64,000 nucleotides of DNA from Candidatus Termititenax aidoneus. Lineage in GTDB: Bacteria; Margulisbacteria; Termititenacia; Termititenacales; Termititenacaceae. Numbering within the stretch: position 1 is the stretch's first letter; each line of letters starts with the position of its first letter. A program made the translations under genes and the position numbers. The notes beneath the pieces were generated by a model. It was not told the DNA's origin. It worked only from the letters and a program-made list of their open reading frames with translations, and ran no database searches. Below are positions 14,206 to 25,469 of this stretch, one piece after another. Location: assembly GCA_003864455.1 (NCBI GenBank), contig BGZN01000004.1, forward strand, positions 3,125-67,124. The letters run 5' to 3'.

Positions 14206-14805
14206 TCAAAGAATTTTTTTGAGATATTTTTTCAACCAACCGAGATTATTATACTCTGGATTAACTTTAATTAGCGACTTATGTTTTTCCAATACTAGTT
14301 GCGGTTTGGCAGGTTTTTCCTCTGAATTATCAAATAAGAAAAAATTGTCAGCCACATTCATACAATCACACACAAGTTTTAATGATTTGTAATATCTTGA
14401 AACTATTTTATTTCTGGGCACATCATGCCCACCGTGCAGAACACGCTCTTGGATACGCCGGATATTTATTTTAGGATTTTGGGTTACAATGTATATTGCT
14501 GTTATAATGTATCCCTGTGTTTTCACAAACCTCAAAAAATCAAGTTTCTCAAATGTAGAAAAAACCGATTCAAAAGAAAAAGATTTGCTTTCGGCTACTG
14601 CTCTGTAACGCTGCAATTCTGCTAGCTGCATTGCTTTGATATAAATTTCTTTATTATTTTTTAATTTTTCATCGAGATTATTATCCGGACAGATGTAATA
14701 AGCCGGACATTTTTCCTCAAGCATAAATTCATTAACTATGGTTGACTTGCCAGAGCCATTTGGCCCGGCAAACAAAAATATTTCTTTTTGAGAATTGCTC
14801 CCCAT
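14206..14805 (-). CDS. zeta-toxin / P-loop kinase family protein (PF06414-like AAA ATPase)
   Basis: Walker A FLFAGPNGSGKST at the N-terminus. The roughly 200-aa size and organisation are typical of zeta-toxin-like kinases. Confidence 0.5.
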   Translation of the reverse strand: MGSNSQKEIFLFAGPNGSGKSTIVNEFMLEEKCPAYYICPDNNLDEKLKNNKEIYIKAMQLAELQRYRAVAESKSFSFESVFSTFEKLDFLRFVKTQGYIITAIYIVTQNPKINIRRIQERVLHGGHDVPRNKIVSRYYKSLKLVCDCMNVADNFFLFDNSEEKPAKPQLVLEKHKSLIKVNPEYNNLGWLKKYLKKIL

Positions 14806-14961: not shown

Positions 14962-15399
14962 TTACTGGCTACTTTTCTGGCATTTCTGGCAGACACCGCG
15001 CACTTTAGCGCCGAAACGCAGCGGTTGAAATTTGTGTCGCGCGGCAATCTTTTTTTGCAGCTTGATAATCGCGCTGTTGTCATACTCAAAAATCTGTCCG
15101 CACTTGACGCAAACCAAATGCCCGTGATCATGATGTTTGTAAAAATGCTCAAAACGAAACACGCCGTCAGCGCCGCGGATGCGCGCGGCCAGTCCAGCCT
15201 GCTCGATCACCTGCATCGCGCGGAAAGTTGACGAGTAGCTGACGTTAGGATGTTTTTTTTTCACCAAATCATGGAGTTCTTCAATCGAAAAATGTCCCTC
15301 GCTGTTGATAAAAACGTCCAGCACATCAAAACGCTGATGCGTGTTGCGCAGTGCGTTTTTGGCGATATAGTCCGCTAAAACCTGGGCTTCTTCTTGCAT
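14962..15399 (-). CDS. Fur-family transcriptional regulator (Fur/Zur/PerR)
   Basis: Winged-helix N-terminus, then HHDHGHLVCVKCGQ ... CQKCQ metal-binding Cys/His motifs. Confidence 0.8.
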   Translation of the reverse strand: MQEEAQVLADYIAKNALRNTHQRFDVLDVFINSEGHFSIEELHDLVKKKHPNVSYSSTFRAMQVIEQAGLAARIRGADGVFRFEHFYKHHDHGHLVCVKCGQIFEYDNSAIIKLQKKIAARHKFQPLRFGAKVRGVCQKCQKSSQ

Positions 15400-15426: not shown

Positions 15427-15930
15427 TCAGGCACGTGGATTATTCTCTATATTCTTTTCCAGTTTCTTGATTTCCGCTGTATCCTTTGCGGCGGACATTT
15501 TGGCAATATTTTGCAGTTTCCAGTTCAGGGCAGGCAGGTTTTGCAAATTGGGAAATGGCAGTAGTGACCAGTCGGGCTGATTATGCATTAGCGACAATAA
15601 AAAATCCTTATGCTTTGCAGTCAGCGATTTTTTAACCCTATTGATTACAGAAATTCTAACGGCTAATAACTCTTCAAGGCTTATTTCTTCTGTCATACCT
15701 ACAAAGGAATTAACAAAAATATCCTTTATATTCAGCAGATTTGGCTCAAGAATTTCTGAAAATGGACGATTGCCCTGTGCCAGATAAGCAATAAAAACAT
15801 CCATAAGGGAATCCAAATTTTTGTTTTTTTGCAAATAAATCCGCATATCAAATATATCCTTCGGATGTTGGCGGTCAAGCATAGCGTTGAGTTTGCCAGC
15901 GTATAGTTCCAAATAAGACAGACATTTCAC
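15427..15930 (-). CDS. AbiEii/AbiGii-family toxin-like protein, C-terminal portion only (nucleotidyltransferase N-domain absent)
   Basis: LELYAGKLNAMLDRQHPKDIFDMRIYL resembles the conserved E.LA.KL.A...R..RD.YD region in the C-terminal half of DUF1814/AbiEii proteins. The N-terminal GG..L nucleotidyltransferase motif is not present. The gene lies 24 bp downstream of AbiEi. Confidence 0.4.
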   Translation of the reverse strand: MKCLSYLELYAGKLNAMLDRQHPKDIFDMRIYLQKNKNLDSLMDVFIAYLAQGNRPFSEILEPNLLNIKDIFVNSFVGMTEEISLEELLAVRISVINRVKKSLTAKHKDFLLSLMHNQPDWSLLPFPNLQNLPALNWKLQNIAKMSAAKDTAEIKKLEKNIENNPRA

Positions 15931-15954: not shown

Positions 15955-16719
15955 TCATCCAAAATTGCTTCCCTCTGGCACGCAGATGGCATATCTGCCT
16001 ATGTATTTGCCACCAACAACAAGTTGCCTTGCCCCTGTGCCTAAATCTATTTTAGTCTCATTCAACTTCTTATACCACGGATGGTTGACGGTAGAGGCAA
16101 CATATAAGAATAGTCTTTTGGCTTTGATAGAAACACATTTTTCCAACAGGGTTTGTAAAAGATTGCTCCTTAAAGACGGGCAGAGTTCCATAAGTTTCAC
16201 AAATTCATCATAATCCGCTTTGGTCGGCACAAGATACGCCATTTCCAGCAAGGCTCTTTCCGGACTGGAAACTATTAGCCCCTCAATATTGACTACTGAA
16301 TCCACAAGCGGTCTTCTGGTCTTGAACAACGGCATTGCCACAACATTATAAATCTTTTGGCTTTTGAGCCATTTCAAATGAGGTGTTCTGCTCTGATCTG
16401 TCCTGAATACATAATAGGTTTGGGCTTTTTTAAGAAAATGCCGCACCCCTTGCAAGTACAAGGCAGATTGCCCACCAAGGACAAAATCCAGTTTGTGCTT
16501 AAATTCCTGTTCTTGCATAGCCTTTATGCTCAAAAGCGGGGAAAGCGGTTTGTCCGTATGTTTATAAACCTCGGGGGCAACCCTTTCCAGCCAATTGCTT
16601 TTACGGTATTTTTGCAATAATTGGCTGGTAAAGCCATTATTTCGCAAATATTTATAGAACAACGGCTGCCCGCGTTCATAGGCTAGTAAAGCTTGCAGTT
16701 TGTTTCTGTTCTTTTTCAT
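15955..16719 (-). CDS. AbiEi-family antitoxin/transcriptional regulator-like protein
   Basis: 254-aa protein with an AbiEi-like N-terminal region and the typical position upstream of an AbiEii-like gene. Confidence 0.5.
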   Translation of the reverse strand: MKKNRNKLQALLAYERGQPLFYKYLRNNGFTSQLLQKYRKSNWLERVAPEVYKHTDKPLSPLLSIKAMQEQEFKHKLDFVLGGQSALYLQGVRHFLKKAQTYYVFRTDQSRTPHLKWLKSQKIYNVVAMPLFKTRRPLVDSVVNIEGLIVSSPERALLEMAYLVPTKADYDEFVKLMELCPSLRSNLLQTLLEKCVSIKAKRLFLYVASTVNHPWYKKLNETKIDLGTGARQLVVGGKYIGRYAICVPEGSNFG

Positions 16720-17071: not shown

Positions 17072-17192
17072 GTCGCCAAAAAGAAATTAAAAACGCCAAA
17101 TGCAGTGCGGTTTTTTGCCCCCCAACCTGAAACCGTCTTAAAAAACAACCTTGCTCTATTCACCAAAAGCTGTGATTTTGGGTGGTTTGGGG
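17072..17192. repeat. left arm of a 122-bp inverted repeat pair
   Basis: gtcgccaaaaagaaattaaaaacgccaaatgcagtgcggttttttgcccccc...gggtggtttgggg matches the reverse complement of 25542-25663, with 3 small indels or mismatches. Confidence 0.85.
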
Positions 17193-17208
17193 TATAATGG
17201 AGGTGTTA

Positions 17209-17573
17209 TGGTAATCCGCCAAGAATACTTAAATCAACTAAAACTTCTCAAAGATCAAAAGATTATAAAAGTCATCACTGGTATTCGCCGTAGTGGCAAA
17301 TCCACACTTTTGGAACTTTTTCGCGACGAATTGGAAAAGCAAGGTATCAAAAAATCTCAGACTCAATCTTTCAATTTTGAGGAAGAGAAAAATGTGGATC
17401 TGCGAGATTGGCGAAAATTACATCAAACAATAGAGAAAAAACTCGTCTCCACCGAGATGAACTATATTTTTTTTGACGAAATCCAAAAAGTTGAGAAGTT
17501 TGAAGAGGTAGATTTTGTAGTGGAAAAGGGTAGCGGCGTGCGAAAATACTACCAAGTGGCATTGAAAAAATAA
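17209..17573 (+). pseudogene. truncated ATPase (AAA_14/DUF4143 family), N-terminal fragment
   Basis: Walker A VITGIRRSGKSTLLEL and Walker B IFFDEIQ match the about 400-aa DUF4143 ATPases, but the ORF stops after about 120 aa. A TATAAT at 17193-17198 immediately follows the left inverted repeat. Confidence 0.55.
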
Positions 17574-17613: not shown

Positions 17614-19101
17614 ATGAACAACAACGAAACCCAACAACTCGAACGCACCCTCTGGGACGCCGCCAACAAACTGCGTGGCAATATCAACTCCTCCGACTAC
17701 AAATACGTCGTGCTGGGGCTGATTTTCATCAAATATGTTTCCGACGCTTTTGAAACGCAATTCGCCAAATACAAGGTGGAAGGCTTTGATGAGTCCGACG
17801 AGGATTTCCTCCGCGATTACCTGACCAAAGACAACATCTTCTATGTCCCGCCCACTGCTCGCTGGAAATATCTCCAAGACCACGCGAAAACCCCGCAAAT
17901 CGGCGAACTCGTGGACAAGGCAATGGACGCCATCGAAAAAGAGAATAAATCCTTAAAAGGCGTTCTCCCAACCAACTACGGACGCGAAGAATTGGACAAA
18001 ACCCGCCTCGGCGAACTGATTGACCTTTTCACCAACAAAATCCGTTTCGGCGCAGACAGCAAAGACCTGCTCGGGCGCGTCTATGAATACTTTATGGGAA
18101 TGTTTGCCGACAGCGAAGGCAAACACGGCGGCGAGTTTTACACCCCGCGCTCCATCGTCCGGCTGCTCGTAGCAATGATTCAGCCCTTCAAAGGCAGAGT
18201 ATATGACCCTTGCTGCGGCTCCGGCGGAATGTTTGTCAGCAGCGAAGATTTCGTGGCGGAACATTCCGGGCGTATCGGCGACATCGCCATTTACGGACAG
18301 GAACTCAACACCACCACTTGGCGTCTTGCCAAAATGAATATGGCGATTCGCGGCATTGACGCACGCCTCGAACAGGGCGACACCTTGCAGGACGACAAAC
18401 TCAAAGATTTGAAGTTTGATTTCATCCTCGCCAATCCGCCGTTTAATATCAGCGATTGGGGACAAGCCCGCGCCCAGGACGATGTCCGCTGGCAGTTTGG
18501 CACTCCGCCCGCCGGCAATGCCAACTACGCTTGGATACAGCACATCGTCCACCACCTCTCGCCTGCGGGAGTCAGCGGTTTTGTAATGGCAAACGGCACA
18601 ATGACCAGCAACACCTCCGGCGAAGGCGACATCCGCCGCCGCATCGTGGAAGCCGGACTCGTGGACTGCATCATCGCTTGCCCCGACAAACTCTTTTTCA
18701 ATGTTACGCTCCCGTGCTGCCTCTGGTTCGTTTCCCGCGACCGCGCCAACCGCAAAGACAAAACCCTCTTTATTGACGCCCGCAAACTGGGCTTTATGGA
18801 AAGCCGCAAAACCCGCAACCTCGCCGAAAGTGACATTCAAAAAATCACCGCCAAATATCACAAGTTCGTTTCGACCGGTGTAACGACAGATGAACCGGGC
18901 TTTGCCAAAGTTGCCACGCTGGAAGAGATCCGCAAAAACGGCTTCGCCCTCACGCCGGGCTTGTATGTCGGAAGCGAAGCGGTGGCAGACGACGGCGACC
19001 TTGACCAGCAAATCGCCAACCTCAAAGCCGAACTCCTCGCCGGTTTTGAAAAAGGCAGAGCGTTGGAAGAGAAAATTATTTACAACTTAAAGGAAGTCTA
19101 A
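17614..19101 (+). CDS. hsdM: type I restriction-modification system DNA methyltransferase subunit
   Basis: N6-adenine methyltransferase motifs, including the catalytic motif in FILANPPFNISDW, and the HsdM N-terminal domain. Confidence 0.9.
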   Translation: MNNNETQQLERTLWDAANKLRGNINSSDYKYVVLGLIFIKYVSDAFETQFAKYKVEGFDESDEDFLRDYLTKDNIFYVPPTARWKYLQDHAKTPQIGELVDKAMDAIEKENKSLKGVLPTNYGREELDKTRLGELIDLFTNKIRFGADSKDLLGRVYEYFMGMFADSEGKHGGEFYTPRSIVRLLVAMIQPFKGRVYDPCCGSGGMFVSSEDFVAEHSGRIGDIAIYGQELNTTTWRLAKMNMAIRGIDARLEQGDTLQDDKLKDLKFDFILANPPFNISDWGQARAQDDVRWQFGTPPAGNANYAWIQHIVHHLSPAGVSGFVMANGTMTSNTSGEGDIRRRIVEAGLVDCIIACPDKLFFNVTLPCCLWFVSRDRANRKDKTLFIDARKLGFMESRKTRNLAESDIQKITAKYHKFVSTGVTTDEPGFAKVATLEEIRKNGFALTPGLYVGSEAVADDGDLDQQIANLKAELLAGFEKGRALEEKIIYNLKEV

Positions 19102-20210
19102 TGACTACACAAACCGTAAAATTAGGCGAGGTGTGCGAGATAAACAGAGCGTCAATCGGTAAGGATTACGCTTTTGATAGCATTGAATACCTTGATACTT
19201 CCTCGGTAACGAGCGGCACTTTTTCTGAAACTGAACATTTGAATTTGGCTGACGCACCAAGCAGAGCAAAACGCATTGTCCAAAACAACGACATTGTGAT
19301 TTCAACAGTTCGTCCAAATTTAAGGCATTTCGGCATTATTCAAAACGCCAAACCCAATATGGTTGTTTCAACAGGTTTTGCTGTTTTAACAATTGACGAA
19401 AGCAAAGCAGATTACAGTTATATTTATTATCTCCTTACAAAAGACGACATAGTAGATTATTTATCAGCAGTCGCCGACCAAGCAGTTAGCACATATCCCG
19501 CATTCAATCCCTCTGTCTTGGTAAACCTTGACCTCTCCCTTCCTCCTCTCCCAGAGCAGCAGCGCGTAGCGGGGATTTTGGGCAGTTTGGACGAAAAAAT
19601 CGAAAACAACCGCACCCTCGTCCGCACCACCGAAGCCCTCGCCCGCACCATCTTCAAAAAACACATCGCCGCAAATGAGGAAAACAAGGGGTGGGAAACG
19701 GTAAAATTAGGTGATGTTTGCGAAGTTTTTATCGGTGGAGATGCTCATAAATATGACATAGTAAAGCAATCTGATAAAACTCATAACGTACCAGTATTTT
19801 CCAATGGCATTGTCAATGAAGGACTTTACGGTTATACAAAAAACGCAGAAGTAAAGGCGGGTTCGGTGACAGTCAGTGCCAGAGGAACTGTTGGTTTTAT
19901 AAAGCTACGAGATACTGATTTTGTTCCTATTGTCCGTTTGATTGCGGTTATTCCAAAAGAAGACGATGTTAGCGGCTATTTTCTTGAAGCAGTTTTACAA
20001 AAAGAAACAATTAACGCAAGTGGGTCAAGCCAACAACAAATAACGGCACCAATGATTAAAAACCTTAGAATCAAACTCCCTCCCGCCGCCGTCTTGCAAT
20101 CGTTCGATGCCGTCGTAGAGCCATTGTTTGCCGAAATCGGCTTTCTCACCCGCGAAAACCAAACCCTCGCCGCCACCCGCGACAAACTTTTAAGGAAACT
20201 AATTAAATGA
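19101..20210 (+). CDS. hsdS: type I restriction-modification system specificity subunit
   Basis: Two target-recognition domains separated by conserved central (LPPLPEQQRVAGILGSLDEKI) and C-terminal (LPPAAVLQSF...LFAEIGFLTRENQTLAATRDKLLRKLIK) repeats. Start overlaps the hsdM stop. Confidence 0.85.
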   Translation: MTTQTVKLGEVCEINRASIGKDYAFDSIEYLDTSSVTSGTFSETEHLNLADAPSRAKRIVQNNDIVISTVRPNLRHFGIIQNAKPNMVVSTGFAVLTIDESKADYSYIYYLLTKDDIVDYLSAVADQAVSTYPAFNPSVLVNLDLSLPPLPEQQRVAGILGSLDEKIENNRTLVRTTEALARTIFKKHIAANEENKGWETVKLGDVCEVFIGGDAHKYDIVKQSDKTHNVPVFSNGIVNEGLYGYTKNAEVKAGSVTVSARGTVGFIKLRDTDFVPIVRLIAVIPKEDDVSGYFLEAVLQKETINASGSSQQQITAPMIKNLRIKLPPAAVLQSFDAVVEPLFAEIGFLTRENQTLAATRDKLLRKLIK

Positions 20211-22363
20211 GTATGCTAACTAAAATTACAGATTACACTCACAAGTCTTTCAAGAAGTTCACGAACCCACCTGACTTAGAGTTCAGACAAAAAAACATCG
20301 TCTTTGGCTATAATGGCAAAGGCAAAAGTGCTTTTGCTCTCGGTGTTAAAGCGGAATTTCTGAAAGATGCGTCAAAAACCGACGCCCATTTTCGTTTGTT
20401 TAATAAGGAATACATAGGCAAGGATTTAATGCTTGAAAATAGCAATGGAAAACTGAAAGGAGTTAAAGCAAATTTCAGCGAAAAAGATGTAACTGCCGAA
20501 ACCAGAATAAAGGAGTTGGAATCTGAAATTGTTAAGCCAGAAGATATTAAAAAACAAGAAGAGGAAATTCTAAAAATAAGGAAAGATGCAAGAAAAGAAG
20601 TTGATAGTATTCACGACAGGAAAAAAGGTAAAGCCAGAATTGCGAAAAAAGAACAGAGTAAACCTGTTGAAGATATAATTAAACTTTACGAAAGCGACTA
20701 TACGGAAGCATACAAAATTGAAACAGATGATGAAAAGTTACTAAAAACAACAGGCGACGACTCAATCTCGAAAGAAATAGAGAAATTTGAAAGTTTGCAA
20801 AATCTAACTTTCACAACTTATTCAGAGACAGAAATAAACGAATTAAAAGCCATTTTTGAGGAAAAATTTGGCGAAGATGTTGAAATTCCGGCAAATGAAA
20901 TTGTGAATTGGATGTCACAAGGTTTGACTTTGCATAAAGATGGCGACAGTTGCAAAATGTGTGGCGGGAAATTGGATTATCAGTCGGTAAAAACGAAGAT
21001 AGAACAATACAAAGACAACAGAAAACATCAAGCGATTGAGAAATTAAAATCTTTCCAAACTAAACTGAAAAAATCCTCTGATGAGATAGAGAGTATCGCA
21101 AAACAAGAAAAAACCTATTCCGCAATTATTGGGGAATCGGTCAAAGAATCATTTCAAAATATAATTGGAAGCAAAACCTCGTTTGAAGAATTAGACAAAT
21201 CATTGCAAGCGAAGATTGAAGACATCTTATCTTCAAATAGTTTTGATTTTGATAAATTGAAATCTGTTTCTGAATCAATTAAAACAGAAATTGAGAGAAC
21301 ACAGAGGGAGAAAAGCCAACAATTAACCACCTTGCGAAACAAACAAAGCAATTTAGAAACATTGGTCAAAGGTTCAATCGGTTTAGAAGTCAAAAATTCT
21401 CAAACCATCAAAGATAAACTGGCAGAGATTAAGAAAAAAGAAGATGATTTGAAGAAAGCTAAAGATAAAAACACTGAAACTCAAGGAGAAATTCAAAAAC
21501 TGAAAACTTCTAAAAGCCCGACCAAAGATTTTGCAGAGTTTGTATCTCAAATTTTGCAAGACATCAACATCTCGCTGAAAGTTGAAGTAGAAGCGACAGA
21601 CAATAACTACATAATCAAAAGTTCACACGAAGAGGTATTACTTACCATAAGCGACATCAGCGAAGGTGAGAAAAACTTGTTGGCTTTGTTATTCTTTTAC
21701 TACGAACTTTTTAATGATAATAAACAGACCGAAGTCAAAACCGATATTGAGTTGGTTATTGTTGACGACCCCATTTCAAGTATGGACGACGCAAACAAGT
21801 TTTATATTTTGGAATTGATGAAAAACATTTTGAATTTAGAATCGCAACAAGTATTTGTTCTAACTCATAGTTGGGACGATTTCTGCAATCTTTCTTATGG
21901 AAGAAAAACAGGTGAAGCAACCTCAAAGTTTTCGACTATTGAAATCAGAAAGAATAACGGAAAAAGTTATTTAGAAAAAGTTGGAAACATTGAAAAACCA
22001 TATAAGCACTTATTCAAAGAACTCTACGATTTTTCGCAGAAGTCAGAAAAAGATATTGGAACTGATTGTGAAATCTACCATTTTCCGAATGTGATGAGGA
22101 GAGTTTTTGAAGAATGGTATAGTTTTAAGATTGGGAAAGATTTGAATTTAACAAGTAATCAACTTGACCGTCTGGCAAATGATTTTGCTATAACCGATAC
22201 AAATAAAAAAACAAAATTAGGAATGCTACTCAAAGTTTGCAACATTCTTTCTCATTCAATCAACACAACAAAAAACCCGCAAGAAATTCATCAATCATCA
22301 AAATTTTTGATGAAATTGATTGAAGACAACGATAGATTACATTTTAATTCAATGAAGGGATAA
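20207..22363 (+). CDS. RloC/PrrC-like anticodon-nuclease candidate (ABC/SMC-type ATPase with coiled-coil and CxxC insert)
   Basis: Walker A GYNGKGKSAF; a long Glu/Lys-rich coiled coil containing CKMCGG (zinc-hook-like); Walker B/D-loop IVDDPISSMDD and H-loop LTHSWDD; C-terminal MRRVFEEW...NILSHS fits the PrrC anticodon-nuclease R-x3-E...H motif. Located between hsdS and hsdR, as prrC is. Confidence 0.55.
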   Translation: MSMLTKITDYTHKSFKKFTNPPDLEFRQKNIVFGYNGKGKSAFALGVKAEFLKDASKTDAHFRLFNKEYIGKDLMLENSNGKLKGVKANFSEKDVTAETRIKELESEIVKPEDIKKQEEEILKIRKDARKEVDSIHDRKKGKARIAKKEQSKPVEDIIKLYESDYTEAYKIETDDEKLLKTTGDDSISKEIEKFESLQNLTFTTYSETEINELKAIFEEKFGEDVEIPANEIVNWMSQGLTLHKDGDSCKMCGGKLDYQSVKTKIEQYKDNRKHQAIEKLKSFQTKLKKSSDEIESIAKQEKTYSAIIGESVKESFQNIIGSKTSFEELDKSLQAKIEDILSSNSFDFDKLKSVSESIKTEIERTQREKSQQLTTLRNKQSNLETLVKGSIGLEVKNSQTIKDKLAEIKKKEDDLKKAKDKNTETQGEIQKLKTSKSPTKDFAEFVSQILQDINISLKVEVEATDNNYIIKSSHEEVLLTISDISEGEKNLLALLFFYYELFNDNKQTEVKTDIELVIVDDPISSMDDANKFYILELMKNILNLESQQVFVLTHSWDDFCNLSYGRKTGEATSKFSTIEIRKNNGKSYLEKVGNIEKPYKHLFKELYDFSQKSEKDIGTDCEIYHFPNVMRRVFEEWYSFKIGKDLNLTSNQLDRLANDFAITDTNKKTKLGMLLKVCNILSHSINTTKNPQEIHQSSKFLMKLIEDNDRLHFNSMKG

Positions 22364-22365
22364 CT

Positions 22366-25300
22366 ATGAATACAATCTTAAACGAAGACCAAATAGAACA
22401 AATGACGCTGGAGATTTTCGGCGAATTGGGCTGGACTGTAAAGCACGGCGCACAAATCAGCCGCGATGCCGACCTTTACGCTCCACTGCCGGATGGTGCG
22501 ACCACTTCCGCCGAGCGTGATTTTGGCGATGTGGTGCTGCGTGGTCGCTTGGAGCAAAAAATCCGCGAAATCAACCCGTGGCTGCCGAGCGAAAAGTTGG
22601 ACGAGGTGTTGCGCAAAATCACCCGCACACACGGCGCAAACGACATTGACAACAACCGCCAGTTTCACCACCTTTTGACCGAAGGTGTGGACACCGAATA
22701 CCGCGACGGCGGCGAAGTAAAAACCCGCAAAGTGTTTTTTGTGGATTTTCAACAACCCGAAAACAACGACTTTCTCGCTGTCAACCAACTGACCGTGATT
22801 CAGGACGGCGTCAACAAACGCCCCGACATTGTGCTGTTTGTCAACGGCTTGCCCCTCGGTGTAATTGAACTCAAAAACGCCGCCGATGCCACCGCCGACC
22901 TTTCCGCCGCTTACAACCAAATCCAAACTTACAGGGCAAAAATCTCAAATCTGTTCCGTTTCAACGAACTCTGCGTGATTTCCGACGGACTTGACGCAAA
23001 AATCGGCACTTTTTCCGCCCCCGAAAACCGCTTTACCGCTTGGAAAACCATTAACGGCGAAGAAATACAGCGCAGCGTGCAGATTGACACGCTGACACGC
23101 GGAGTGTTTGAAAAATCGCGTGTTTTGGACATTATCAAAAACTTCATCGTCTTTGAACGCGACGACACCAACTACATCAAAAAACTTGCCGCCTATCATC
23201 AGTATTGGGTGGTGAATAAAGCGCTAGCGACGACCACGCAGGCAATCGCAGGCGACCATCGCGCCGGTGTCGTCTGGCATACGCAAGGCAGCGGCAAGTC
23301 GCTTTCTATGGTGTTTTATGCCGGTAAGCTGATTGCGACGAGCGAACTGCACAACCCGACCCTCGTCATCGTTACCGACCGCAACGACCTCGACGGGCAA
23401 CTTTACAGCACTTTTCATAACTGTGCCGATTTGCTCCGTCAAACGCCCGTGCAAGCCACGAGCCGTGCCGATTTGAAGGACAAACTCAACCGCGAAGCCG
23501 GCGGAGTGATTTTTACTACCATTCAAAAGTTTGAAGAAAGCAACGAAGCAATTTCTGGGCGTTCAAATATCATCGTCATTGCTGACGAGGCGCACCGCTC
23601 GCAATACGGGCTGAAAGCGAGAGTTGGGCGTGACGGCGAGGTGGCGTATGGTGCGGCAAAATATATGCGCGACACGCTGCCCAACGCTTCGTATATCGGC
23701 TTTACCGGCACGCCGATTGAACTTGACGACCGCTCCACGCCGGCGGTGTTTGGCGATTATATTGATATTTACGATGTGGCGCGTGCGGTAGAAGACGGCG
23801 CAACAGTGCCGATTTATTACGAATCACGCTTGGTTGATTTGGGATTCGACGATGAGACGAAAAAGTGGATGGACGAAGAAGTTGACGCGCTTTTTGAAGA
23901 TGTGGAAATGAGTAAGAGCGAGCAACTGAAAGCCGAATTTGCCCAGAAAGAAGCCATTGTCGGCAACCGCGAGCGCGTGAAGTTGATAGCCCGTGACATT
24001 GTGGAGCATTTTGAAAAACGCGAGGAAGTTTTCGCCGGCAAGGGAATGATTGTGGCAATGAGCCGTCAAATTGCGGCGTCGCTTTATGAGAAAATTATCG
24101 CCCTGCGTCCCGACTGGCACAGTGACGAGGTAACTTCCGGCGCACTCAAATGCGTTATCACCGGCGCGTCGAGCGACCCGGCGAATTTGCAAAAACATAT
24201 CCGCAGCAAACCCGACCGCGTGATTGTGGAGAAACGCTTCAAAGACCCGAAAAGCGACCTGAAACTCGTGATAGTGTGCGATATGTGGCTGACCGGTTTT
24301 GATGTGCCGCCGCTTCACACGATGTATCTTGATAAACCGCTGAAAATGCACAATTTGATGCAGGCAATTGCCCGCGTGAACCGCGTTTATCCCGACAAAG
24401 TCGGCGGGCTGGTGGTGGATTATCTCGGCGTGGCGGGAGCGCTGCGCGATGCGATGGCGGTTTATGCTAAATCCGGCGGAACTGGGACGCAAACGGTTGA
24501 TGTTGAGGCGGCAGTGGTGGAAATGAACCGCCGCGTGGAAGTGGTGCGCGATTTGTTCCACGGCTTTGATTATGCGGCGTTTTTCACCGGCTCGGCTGGG
24601 AAAAAATTAGAAATAATGCTGGACGCCGAAGAGTTTATCTTGGGTAAAGTGGAAGACGGCGAAGCGCGCGTCTGAAACGCGAAGTTCACGGACTCTACAA
24701 GGCATTTTCGCTCGCAATGCCGCAACCCGACGCACTCGCAATTCGTGAAGAAGTGGCATTTTTCCAAGCAGTGAAAGCCCGCCTGACCAAAGCAGGTGAA
24801 ACCGGAAAATTAGACAAGGACTACAAAATACAGTTGCAACAGATTGTGGACAAAGCGATTCAACCGCTCGGCATTGTGGACGTGCTTGAAGCGGCGGGGG
24901 TTGAAAAACGCGAACTGCCAATGCTCTCAGAAGAGTTTTTGGCGGAAATCCGCAATTATAAGCGCAAAAGTTTGGCAGTCAGAGCATTGGAAAAACTGCT
25001 TGCTGACCAAATCCGCGCCGGGTTTGCTCACAACGCCATCAAGAGCGAACAATTCAGCGAACTGATTAAAAAGGCATTAGACCGCTACAAAAACGGCACT
25101 ATCGAAGCGGCGCAAATCATTGAGGAGTTGATAGACATTGCCCGCAAATTGAAGGCAAACATAGAAAATCGCCCCGCCGATATGACCGATGACGAAATCG
25201 CCTTTTACGATGCCCTCGCCGACAACGGCTCCGCCCGCGAAGTCCTCGGCGATGAACAACTCCGCGAAATCGCCCGCTATCTCGTGGAAAAAGTCCGCAA

Positions 25301-25469
25301 AAACATCACGACCGATTGGAGCGTGAGAGAAAGTGCAAGAGCGCAGTTGAAATACGAAGTTCGCGTAGCGCTGAACAAATTCGGCTACCCGCCGGATAAA
25401 CAAGCCATCGCCACAGAGCGCGTGCTGCAACAAGCCGAAGTGTTAGGCAATCAGGTTTCAGAGCAGTAA
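22366..25469 (+). pseudogene. hsdR: type I restriction enzyme R subunit, interrupted by a frameshift near 24655-24675
   Basis: 22366-24675 encodes the N-terminal, helicase and motor domains (DEAH-like IVIADEAHRSQ). The C-terminal domain continues in another frame from about 24661 (LKREVHGLYKAFSLAMPQPDALAIREEVAFFQAVKA ... to 25469). The junction lies in a gcgcgcg run. Confidence 0.8.

Follow-up and report, generated by a model that had tools for sequence, protein, structure and literature searches.

The window, the whole 64,000-nucleotide stretch of Candidatus Termititenax aidoneus DNA that was analyzed, contains on its forward strand a type I restriction-modification (R-M) locus with an additional gene, here designated X, between hsdS and hsdR (Table 1). 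The gene order hsdM-hsdS-X-hsdR, first read from the sequence alone, was borne out by Pfam, NCBIfam, and PADLOC, and X thus resides in a type I R-M locus, as is characteristic of PrrC. The first-pass annotation had given the coordinates and length of the X open reading frame exactly, and every motif that it quoted (GYNGKGKS, CKMCGG, DDPISSMDD, THS, MRRVFEEW, and LSHS) was found in the protein. Its description of 1- to 4-nt overlaps along the operon holds for hsdM/hsdS (1 nt) and hsdS/X (4 nt, ATGA) but not for X/hsdR, which are separated by a 2-nt spacer. Because the start and stop codons of X abut its neighbors, the gene is probably cotranscribed and translationally coupled with them, cotranscription being judged from gene spacing only; a promoter and terminator scan at the locus gave signals at the same level as shuffled sequence.

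Table 1. Features of the hsdM-hsdS-X-hsdR locus. Positions are those of the window, residue numbers are those of X, and conservation counts refer to an alignment of 101 sequences.
Feature	Positions	Strand	Description and evidence
hsdM	17614..19101	+	Type I methyltransferase subunit, 495 aa; Pfam N6_Mtase 9.9e-107, HsdM_N; PADLOC MTase_I 3.8e-184
hsdS	19101..20210	+	Specificity subunit, 369 aa; Pfam Methylase_S, two stretches; PADLOC Specificity_I 1.7e-52
X (rloC-type gene)	20207..22363	+	718 aa, ATG start; ATPase head of ABC type, insert with predicted coiled coil and zinc hook, predicted C-terminal anticodon nuclease
Walker A / P-loop	20306..20329	+	GYNGKGKS, residues 34-41; K40 in 99/101
Helical insert	20483..21562	+	Largely helical, splits ATPase head, ~residues 93-452; AF2 DSSP helices, predicted coiled-coil region
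Zinc-hook motif	20951..20962	+	C249-K-M-C252; both Cys in 101/101
ABC signature	21656..21673	+	ISEGEK, residues 484-489; S485 and G487 in 101/101
Walker B / D-loop	21752..21787	+	LVIVDDPISSMD, residues 516-527; D520 and D521 in 101/101
H-loop (switch) histidine	21866..21868	+	H554, in THS 553-555; H in 96/101
C-terminal domain	21992..22360	+	All-helical, predicted anticodon nuclease (putatively HEPN-like), residues 596-718; conservation, predicted fold
Triad	22097-22099 (R631), 22109-22111 (E635), 22250-22255 (S682-H683)	+	Predicted catalytic from sequence
hsdR, upstream part	22366..24675	+	769 aa, carries the nuclease domain and the SF2 motor; TIGR00348 hsdR 1.4e-187; premature TGA
hsdR frameshift site	24664..24670	+	(GC)3G run; tblastn, in silico repair
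hsdR, downstream part	24669..25469	+	Shifted frame, C-terminal helical domain; listed ORF from 24717

Type I R-M systems call for intact hsdM, hsdS, and hsdR; here hsdM and hsdS are intact and hsdR is frameshifted. The upstream part of hsdR corresponds to positions 4-755 of the 1029 in the PADLOC REase_I model, and the downstream part to positions 781-1025 of the same model and to positions 82-326 of 329 in Pfam T1RH-like_C (1.2e-83). When five intact HsdR homologs were used as tblastn queries, two adjacent HSPs were obtained in frames 1 and 3, and in silico removal of one GC unit restored a 1033-aa HsdR that aligned over positions 1-1028. This single frameshift had been missed earlier. The proposal that the locus is a "two-layer" unit of restriction plus abortive infection, which needs a working restriction subunit, is therefore not supported in that form, and the unit may be without its restriction arm. 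Other neighbors of X are degraded as well, with an N-truncated AbiEii gene and an AAA_14 remnant in addition to the frameshifted hsdR.

To describe conservation in X, we aligned 101 sequences including 100 relatives that are 20-58% identical. The ABC motifs of RloC (Walker A, signature, Walker B/D-loop, and switch His) are all found in X and are 95-100% conserved among the relatives; the DDPISSMDD string spans residues 520-528. The helical insert of ~360 residues was modeled by AF2 with pLDDT values mostly of 85-94 across its helices (93-452), and it carries at residues 249-254 the CKMCGG sequence, which contains the sole CxxC in X. This motif was placed in a loop between helices 229-239 and 258-299 and is embedded in a conserved block, W235-x3-G-L-x-L-H243-x5-C-x-[FM]-C, that matches the corresponding blocks of GkaRloC, AbaRloC, and the Campylobacter jejuni RloC (Fig. 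S1 of PMC2610378). X thus shows two features by which RloC is recognized: a helical insert that divides the ATPase head and, centrally in that insert, a CX2C, here a putative zinc hook. The AF2 model is poor at residues 1-38 (Walker A included), 244-251 (the hook, pLDDT <50), and 683-687 (the catalytic His loop). In fold comparisons against the PDB, X was matched best by SMC/Rad50 heads that include coiled coil. Searches of the PDB by sequence and by profile returned no solved RloC or PrrC and only coiled-coil noise. A genome scan that used the Walker B/D-loop stretch of X (LVIVDDPISSMD) as its pattern gave no Geobacillus and no Acinetobacter baylyi among its matches.

The C-terminal domain was modeled with a pLDDT of 87.6 and a pTM of 0.84. 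Its MRRVFEEW (residues 630-637) and LSHS (residues 681-684) strings provide a predicted triad spaced as R631-x3-E635-x47-S682-H683. The published RloC screen calls for ABC ATPase motifs, a CxxC, and a C-proximal Arg-X3-Glu-X36-52-His, often with Ser before the His, and the E-x47-H interval of X fits the x36-52 range; in GkaRloC, the anticodon nuclease (ACNase) activity requires each triad residue (PMC2610378). R631, E635, N679, S682, and H683 are conserved in 100, 99, 101, 100, and 99 of the 101 sequences, respectively, and R632 and E636, beside the triad residues, vary. Near-invariance of both the triad and the hook cysteines in 100 relatives of such low identity places these motifs beyond chance. 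The PDB matches of highest TM score for this domain were HEPN toxins, although at E values of 0.3-3 they are statistically nonsignificant; the HEPN-style motif of X is N679-x3-H683 versus the R-x4-6-H active-site motif of the superfamily, with the invariant R631 and E635 on an earlier helix.

Given these features and its homology to one of the proteins originally listed as RloC, X is assigned to RloC rather than to PrrC, so that the RloC half of the original "RloC/PrrC-like" label stands and the PrrC half does not. The Cupriavidus metallidurans CH34 RloC (792 aa; in PMC2610378 it is entry 37 of Table S1 and appears in Fig. S1 as Q3RRA9_RALME) was aligned with X end to end by hhalign (99.8%, E 9.5e-30, 671 columns) and was matched by BLASTP at 2e-17, with only ~20% identity. 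The two proteins are in register at CKMC opposite CLFC, PNVMRRVFEE opposite PNIARRLLES, and SH opposite SH; the Arg/Glu/His triad whose presence was to decide the first-pass proposal is thus there and aligned with that of a listed RloC. Pfam PF13166 (AAA_13) covered residues 24-699 of X with model positions 13-706 of 713 (191.8 bits). The best PADLOC match was PDC-S06 (1.9e-40, 137 bits), above PrrC (1.3e-9, 35.6 bits), with weaker matches to LmuB (1.5e-9) and AriA (2.3e-5). The CH34 protein matches the same PADLOC models and scores 1.2e-286 on the PDC-S06 model PDLC04894, which indicates that the PDC-S06 models cover RloC-type proteins. Homologs of X at 57-86% identity carry the JGI name "wobble nucleotide-excising tRNase," and the 718 aa of X lie within the published RloC length range of 658-897 aa (PMC2610378).

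Membership of X in PrrC is ruled out by architecture, since X is double the size of PrrC and contains the ~360-residue helical insert. Inclusion of the C-terminal domain raised the PADLOC PrrC score from 29.9 to 40.5 bits, with the alignment reaching model position 336 of 372. The domain thus adds 10.6 bits in full-protein context, but on its own it gave no match to the PADLOC PrrC model. C-terminal-only plasmid matches, checked for PrrC-sized proteins, were all full-length RloC-type proteins or fragments. The Walker A context of X, GKGKSAFAL, holds no Arg.

We conclude, with a probability of roughly 0.8, that X is an RloC-family anticodon nuclease that would act as a latent, DNA-end/ATPase-triggered abortive-infection backup to restriction. 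The connection to assayed enzymes runs at the sequence level through the listed CH34 ortholog and the Fig. S1 hook block. By analogy with the Geobacillus and Acinetobacter RloC proteins, the nuclease of X would be held off by its zinc hook and ATPase, and it could be released by DNA-end binding and ATP hydrolysis, as after phage-induced DNA breakage or restriction failure. Released X would then cut tRNA anticodon loops, excising the wobble nucleotide, and the resulting translation shutdown might serve as the abortive-infection backup. GkaRloC is a zinc-responsive, wobble-nucleotide-excising tRNase activated through its DNA-dependent ATPase (PMC2610378, PMC3458546). 

The gene itself entered by horizontal transfer, as an AT-rich cassette between hsdS and hsdR; its GC content is 33%, versus 51-53% for the flanking hsdM and hsdR. 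Comparison with an 86% identical ortholog (L092) gave a dN/dS of 0.096 at a dS of 0.77, and 0.053 for the nuclease domain, values by which X is under strong purifying selection. Given that hsdR appears frameshifted in this genome, the RloC arm may have been preserved better than the restriction arm.

The position of X raises the question of its control. The statement that the enzyme is "held silent by the R-M complex" describes PrrC biology and, as applied to X, is an analogy that lacks support as worded; RloC has an internal switch made of the zinc hook and a DNA-dependent ATPase (PMC3458546, PMC3874168), and AbaRloC was activated in R-M-deficient mutants (PMC3874168). Both of these studies explicitly leave the interaction between RloC and R-M open, and PrrC-type regulation is compatible with RloC membership: the surrounding Hsd complex would bind and silence X, and a phage anti-restriction factor would free it. 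Several observations point this way. X occupies the prrC slot (hsdS-X-hsdR) of the prr locus (PMC3710099), and its coding sequence abuts or overlaps its neighbors. Eight other genomes have the same slot filled, in hsdM-hsdS-X-hsdR order, by RloC-type genes only ~22% identical to X, and the hsd operons of five of these genomes are clearly related to the one here (hsdR 46-51% identical). Close relatives also lie within R-M operons of type I and type III and within ISP-like ones (L001-L006 among the R-M-linked loci). Set against these are the internal silencer of RloC, the close relatives with no R-M neighbor (L009, L011, L012, and L013), the frameshift of hsdR while X is intact and constrained, and the departure of X from PrrC size and architecture. 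On balance, we regard PrrC-type regulation as possible but unlikely. When the Escherichia coli prr locus was sought through hsdM similarity, none of the three hsd loci inspected contained prrC, and one had a DUF4268 insert. A more speculative proposal, which we consider improbable, is that the hsdS-hsdR junction of this type I family is a dedicated docking slot in which RloC-types only ~22% identical to one another have been exchanged repeatedly, the flanking hsd genes staying ~50% identical. The strong purifying selection on X next to an hsdR that has lost its frame would then fit R-M-embedded RloCs that work with the HsdM2S methyltransferase core as sensor or silencer, independently of HsdR. 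If true, X would belong to a restriction-independent abortive-infection module tied to the modification complex and would not be a mere backup to restriction.

It is less probable still that X is a Rad50/SMC-like DNA-handling ATPase devoid of RNase activity, whether a DNA-end sensor, a restriction accessory, or a Lamassu/PARIS/Septu-type protein with a partner nuclease. Such a role would agree with the Rad50 and SMC head fold matches and with the weaker LmuB and AriA hits, but these hits are limited to the ATPase motifs, and inclusion of the C-terminal domain gave zero gain on the LmuB, AriA, and PtuA models. The operon also has no LmuA, AriB, PtuB, Mre11, or SbcD-type partner; we rejected the Lamassu/PARIS/Septu-type assignment on the missing partner gene and score gain. 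Moreover, the triad is conserved like the ATPase motifs and aligned with that of a listed RloC, and each of its residues is essential in GkaRloC. The least probable reading, an inert relic decaying as a passenger in a decaying defense island of a symbiont genome, fits the degraded neighbors and the finding that some relatives (L019 and L020) are split pseudogenes, but the 718-codon frame is intact with all catalytic motifs kept, and pseudogene status was rejected on the dN/dS value.

As a clear new member of a known family, X is an ordinary find; it amounts to a solid annotation and falls short of a discovery, and it leaves current understanding unchanged. A well-supported RloC-type anticodon nuclease nevertheless joins the defense repertoire of the uncultured termite-gut symbiont Candidatus Termititenax, and the unnamed PADLOC PDC-S06 candidates are seen to include RloC-type proteins. 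The locus also offers a concrete system for asking whether an RloC embedded in an R-M operon is under Hsd control like PrrC or is governed by its internal DNA-sensing switch alone. The recurrent use of the slot by divergent RloC-types, the linkage to type I, type III, and ISP-like systems, and a constrained X beside a broken hsdR provide data for that question.

Among known systems, PDC-S06 and PF13166 are the best HMM assignments of X and are bioinformatic labels without mechanism. Rad50, SbcC, and SMC proteins have, like X, an ATPase head that is split by a long insert of helices, and their CxxC hook lies at its apex, as would that of X; they have no C-terminal nuclease domain and work on DNA with a separate Mre11/SbcD partner, whereas X has the domain and no Mre11/SbcD-type partner among its locus neighbors. 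PrrC, encoded in the E. coli EcoprrI operon hsdM-hsdS-prrC-hsdR, shares the type I operon position, the ABC ATPase motifs, and the Arg/Glu/His triad, and the PrrC-model alignment of X spans the triad region. Unlike X, PrrC is 341-416 aa long and has a contiguous ABC ATPase domain with no coiled-coil/zinc-hook insert; its PrrC Box and an Arg ending the Walker A motif are tied to GTP/dTTP control, and that Arg is described as missing from RloC (PMC3458546), in agreement with the Arg-free Walker A context of X. In addition, PrrC nicks its substrate and relies on an R-M protein as external silencer, whereas RloC excises. The closest correspondence is with RloC (GkaRloC and AbaRloC; COG4694, "wobble nucleotide-excising tRNase"; Davidov & Kaufmann 2008), which has the same size class and ABC ATPase motifs as X, the hook motif W-x3-G-L-x-L-H...C-x-F/M-C-G-x-K-[IL]-D within a helical insert, the C-terminal Arg-x3-Glu-x47-Ser-His, and an occasional location within R-M loci of type I or type III, the source of the name "restriction-linked ORF." Within this family, X belongs to a compact subfamily of ~715 aa, drawn mainly from metagenomic Bacteroidota, Patescibacteria, and Firmicutes. 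Of the 80 relatives sampled at genome loci, at least 19-21 are R-M-linked, including the eight with the hsdM-hsdS-X-hsdR order, versus 8 of 73 in the founding RloC survey (PMC2610378).

The gene between hsdS and hsdR, termed X here, encodes a protein with each of the four features by which RloC is defined: a length of 658–897 aa, the motifs of an ABC ATPase, a helical insertion bearing a CX2C at its center, and a C-proximal Arg-X3-Glu-X36-52-His in which a Ser often precedes the His (PMC2610378). The correspondence is literal, including the size of 718 aa and a C-terminal spacing of R631-x3-E635-x47-S682-H683. The motifs quoted in the first-pass annotation were all present where it had placed them, and an ABC signature was recognized besides; all were invariant across 36 close homologs. 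When 1.84 billion representatives were searched with a profile, 159 clusters matched at a threshold of E ≤ 1e-30 and 2176 when the threshold was relaxed to 1e-3. X was aligned with 100 full-length representatives (20–58% identity). The hook residues C249 and C252, as well as N679, were conserved in 101/101 sequences, R631 and S682 in 100, and E635 and H683 in 99, compared to only 54/101 for R632 and 46/101 for E636. From these counts, we assign R631, E635, and H683 as the triad. The alignment indicates that the motifs are under constraint and are not chance matches.

Features of the hsd locus, its neighbors, and the X protein
Feature	Position	Strand	Remarks
Zeta-toxin/AAA_33-like P-loop protein	14206-14805	-	weak match; beside defence genes
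Fur-family regulator	14962-15399	-	beside defence genes
AbiEii toxin ORF	15427-15930	-	GTG start; Pfam model 133-236/238 only
AbiEi antitoxin	15955-16719	-	apparently intact
AAA_14-type ATPase remnant	17151-17573	+	140 aa; immediately upstream of hsdM; Pfam AAA_14 model 4-79/129 only
hsdM	17614-19101	+	Pfam N6_Mtase 9.9e-107; also NCBIfam/PADLOC
hsdS	19101-20210	+	Pfam Methylase_S
X ORF	20207-22363	+	ATG start, 718 aa
hsdR upstream ORF	22366-24675	+	TIGR00348 1.4e-187
hsdR frameshift site	24664-24670	+	(GC)3G run; hsdR 22366-25469
Walker A, GYNGKGKS	X residues 34-41
CKMCGG	X residues 249-254		sole CxxC of the protein
ABC signature, ISEGEK	X residues 484-489		additional to the first-pass motifs
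DDPISSMDD	X residues 520-528
THS	X residues 553-555
MRRVFEEW	X residues 630-637
LSHS	X residues 681-684

Family models and homology to an RloC of the founding list agree with this assignment. Pfam PF13166 (AAA_13) matched residues 24–699 over essentially the whole model (positions 13–706 of 713, 191.8 bits), and several PADLOC PDC-S06 models matched, the best at 1.9e-40. The NCBI record of the identical Candidatus Termititenax aidoneus protein bears an uninformative name; many homologs at 57–86% identity are named "wobble nucleotide-excising tRNase", the RloC COG label, by JGI. A tblastn search of a plasmid collection with X found a match in Cupriavidus metallidurans CH34 (query residues 516–716) within a 792-aa ORF. 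This ORF is an RloC of the founding list, since its size equals that of entry 37 in Table S1 and its sequence is recognizable in the Fig. S1 row Q3RRA9_RALME, which is aligned to the Geobacillus kaustophilus enzyme, GkaRloC (PMC2610378). X and the CH34 protein aligned over their full length by BLASTP (E = 2e-17) and over 671 columns by profile comparison (99.8% probability, E = 9.5e-30), in register at CKMC/CLFC, PNVMRRVFEE/PNIARRLLES, and SH/SH. The CH34 protein also matched the PADLOC models of X (PDC-S06 PDLC04894 at 1.2e-286 and PrrC at 4.1e-13), and thus the PDC-S06 models cover RloC-type proteins. With the four defining features and this homology, the RloC-type identity proposed in the first-pass annotation holds, and X is well supported by sequence comparison as a new member of the RloC family.

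Identification of X as PrrC itself was rejected, as PrrC proteins are 341–416 aa long and have no insert (PMC2610378). The PADLOC PrrC model matched X more weakly than did PDC-S06 (1.3e-9; residues 429–705 on model positions 98–336 of 372). The suggested PrrC likeness of the C-terminal region was recovered only in context: the C-terminal 123 residues (C-domain) alone gave no match to this model, whereas residues 429–595 scored 29.9 bits (model positions 123–214) and residues 429–718 scored 40.5 bits (model positions 123–336). The LmuB, AriA, and PtuA models gained no score from the same extension.

In the full-length AF2 model (mean pLDDT 77), the ATPase head is predicted to be split by helices at approximately residues 93–452, and the CxxC is placed in a loop between helices 229–239 and 258–299; confidence was poor at residues 1–38, 244–251, and 683–687. 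The PDB structures that matched this model best were coiled-coil-bearing heads of SMC and Rad50 proteins (E ∼1e-4). Modeled alone, the C-domain formed a confident six-helix domain (pLDDT 87.6, pTM 0.84) whose highest-TM matches (0.44–0.54) were all HEPN toxins (7ae6, 5yep, 7bxo, 6m6u, and 1ylm). Because the E-values of these matches were 0.3–3, a HEPN fold is plausible but unproven; it agrees with published work that places the nuclease domains of both PrrC and RloC among HEPN proteins (PMC3710099). Sequence searches of the PDB found no RloC or PrrC structure.

The flanking ORFs, identified with Pfam, NCBIfam, and PADLOC, bore out the order hsdM-hsdS-X-hsdR, and RloC genes are already known from positions inside R-M operons. 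The short overlaps reported earlier were found at hsdM/hsdS (1 nt) and hsdS/X (4 nt, ATGA) but not at X/hsdR, where a 2-nt spacer occurs. A metagenome contig (L092, JGI sample 3300042602) is 86% nucleotide-identical to window positions 20109–22664 and has the same layout (L092:1–2695; hsdS C-terminus, X, 2-nt spacer, hsdR). Its upstream hsdS target-recognition region differs and the similarity ends within hsdS, which suggests swapping of hsdS specificity. The dN/dS of X in this pair was 0.096 at a dS of 0.77 (Nei-Gojobori). Regional values were 0.037 (N-terminal head lobe), 0.148 (insert), and 0.053 (nuclease domain), and the hsdR N-terminus gave 0.093. On the basis of the value of 0.096, X is a maintained gene under purifying selection, and its interpretation as a relic was rejected. 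The GC content of X is 33%, compared to 53% for hsdM, 43% for hsdS, 51–53% for hsdR, and 48% for the whole window; the L092 copy (244–2394) has 34% and its flanks 57%. Thus, X has 33–34% GC in two lineages at this dS, inside hsd genes of 53–57% GC. Base composition indicates that X is a cassette of foreign origin whose GC content has not moved toward that of the host; this persistence could reflect a Lys/Glu/Asn/Ile-rich composition or the rare-codon, low-expression feature of rloC genes (PMC2610378).

The intact two-layer defence unit envisaged earlier is not supported by the assembled sequence, in which hsdR is frameshifted. Five intact HsdR homologs (∼1050–1200 aa) each matched the window as two adjacent segments by tblastn, in frame 1 to ∼24648 and in frame 3 from ∼24669, with homolog coordinates contiguous over the break. 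Removal of one GC unit in silico at the frameshift site yielded a 1033-aa HsdR aligning over positions 1–1028; without this repair, the frameshift cuts the nuclease-motor part off from the helical domain at the C-terminus (Pfam T1RH-like_C). A real lesion is plausible since two upstream genes also look decayed, the AbiEii ORF resembling an N-terminally truncated toxin and the AAA_14 ORF a truncated relic. Alternatively, the frameshift may be an assembly error, or the run may be a phase-variable repeat. A 416-aa AAA_14/DUF4143 gene adjoins the hsd locus of L004, a comparison locus.

Close relatives of X occur in type III res-mod-X operons (comparison loci L001–L003), in hsdM-X-hsdS...hsdR (L004 and L005), and in hsdR-hsdM-RhuM-X-hsdS (L006); relatives in L009, L011, L012, and L013 have no R-M neighbor. 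Among 80 loci kept from a reference-genome scan, a deliberately simple test placed R-M genes (type I, type III, or ISP-like) within 8 kb in at least 19–21. Eight loci (L026, L030, L031, L034, L042, L067, L074, and L081) have the order hsdM-hsdS-X-hsdR, and all eight occupants retain the hook and the PN[IV]AR[RK]xxE...H motif. In the five tested (L030, L031, L034, L067, and L081), HsdR is 46–51% identical to that of the window and X only ∼22%. Different cargo, a DUF4268 gene, fills the same slot in E. coli GPT24-02 (L089:7401–14788). From these eight loci and the E. coli example, we conclude that the hsdS-hsdR slot is a recurrent insertion point, which fits the R-M linkage (8/73) of the 2008 survey (PMC2610378) as well as the initial "restriction-linked ORF" observation. 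In Saccharibacteria MAGs (L016:985–7535, L017, and L018), an RloC-type gene immediately follows the gene for a ∼1400-aa fused ResIII + Eco57I/N6_Mtase enzyme. This type ISP/IIG-like enzyme is a third kind of R-M partner, in addition to types I and III. Two ORFs make up the RloC-type gene, which is thus probably a pseudogene, in a Mollicutes MAG (L019:8001–10149) and a Streptococcus genome (L020:7998–10133). A conserved ∼818-aa RloC-type "AAA family ATPase" adjoins radC in L095:3210–5666 (the inspected plasmid, typed IncA/IncP) and ∼90 conjugative plasmids of Enterobacterales/Pseudomonas, echoing the RadC linkage in Table S1 (PMC2610378).

The sequence analysis shows the architecture of X, its conserved hook and triad, its family membership, its maintenance by purifying selection, and its place in the operon, whereas its mechanism is inferred from published work on other RloC proteins. 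X is most likely a latent anticodon nuclease, for which DNA breakage or failed restriction would most likely be the infection signal and translation shutdown the outcome. The PrrC-style regulation proposed in the first-pass annotation, in which the Hsd proteins would silence X, is not established, though it may occur. The GkaRloC nuclease is turned on by a DNA-dependent ATPase responsive to DNA ends, and agents that induce double-strand breaks activate the Acinetobacter baylyi enzyme, AbaRloC, even when the host is R-M deficient (PMC3458546, PMC3874168). GkaRloC removes the tRNA wobble nucleotide, with every triad residue essential to activity; hook mutations switch its nuclease on and Zn2+ inhibits it (PMC2610378). 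The hook block of X reads W-M-S-Q-G-L-T-L-H-K-D-G-D-S-C-K-M-C-G-G-K-L-D, compared to W-V-R-E-G-L-G-L-H-K-G-L-E-C-A-F-C-G-N-K-I-D as printed for GkaRloC (PMC2610378).
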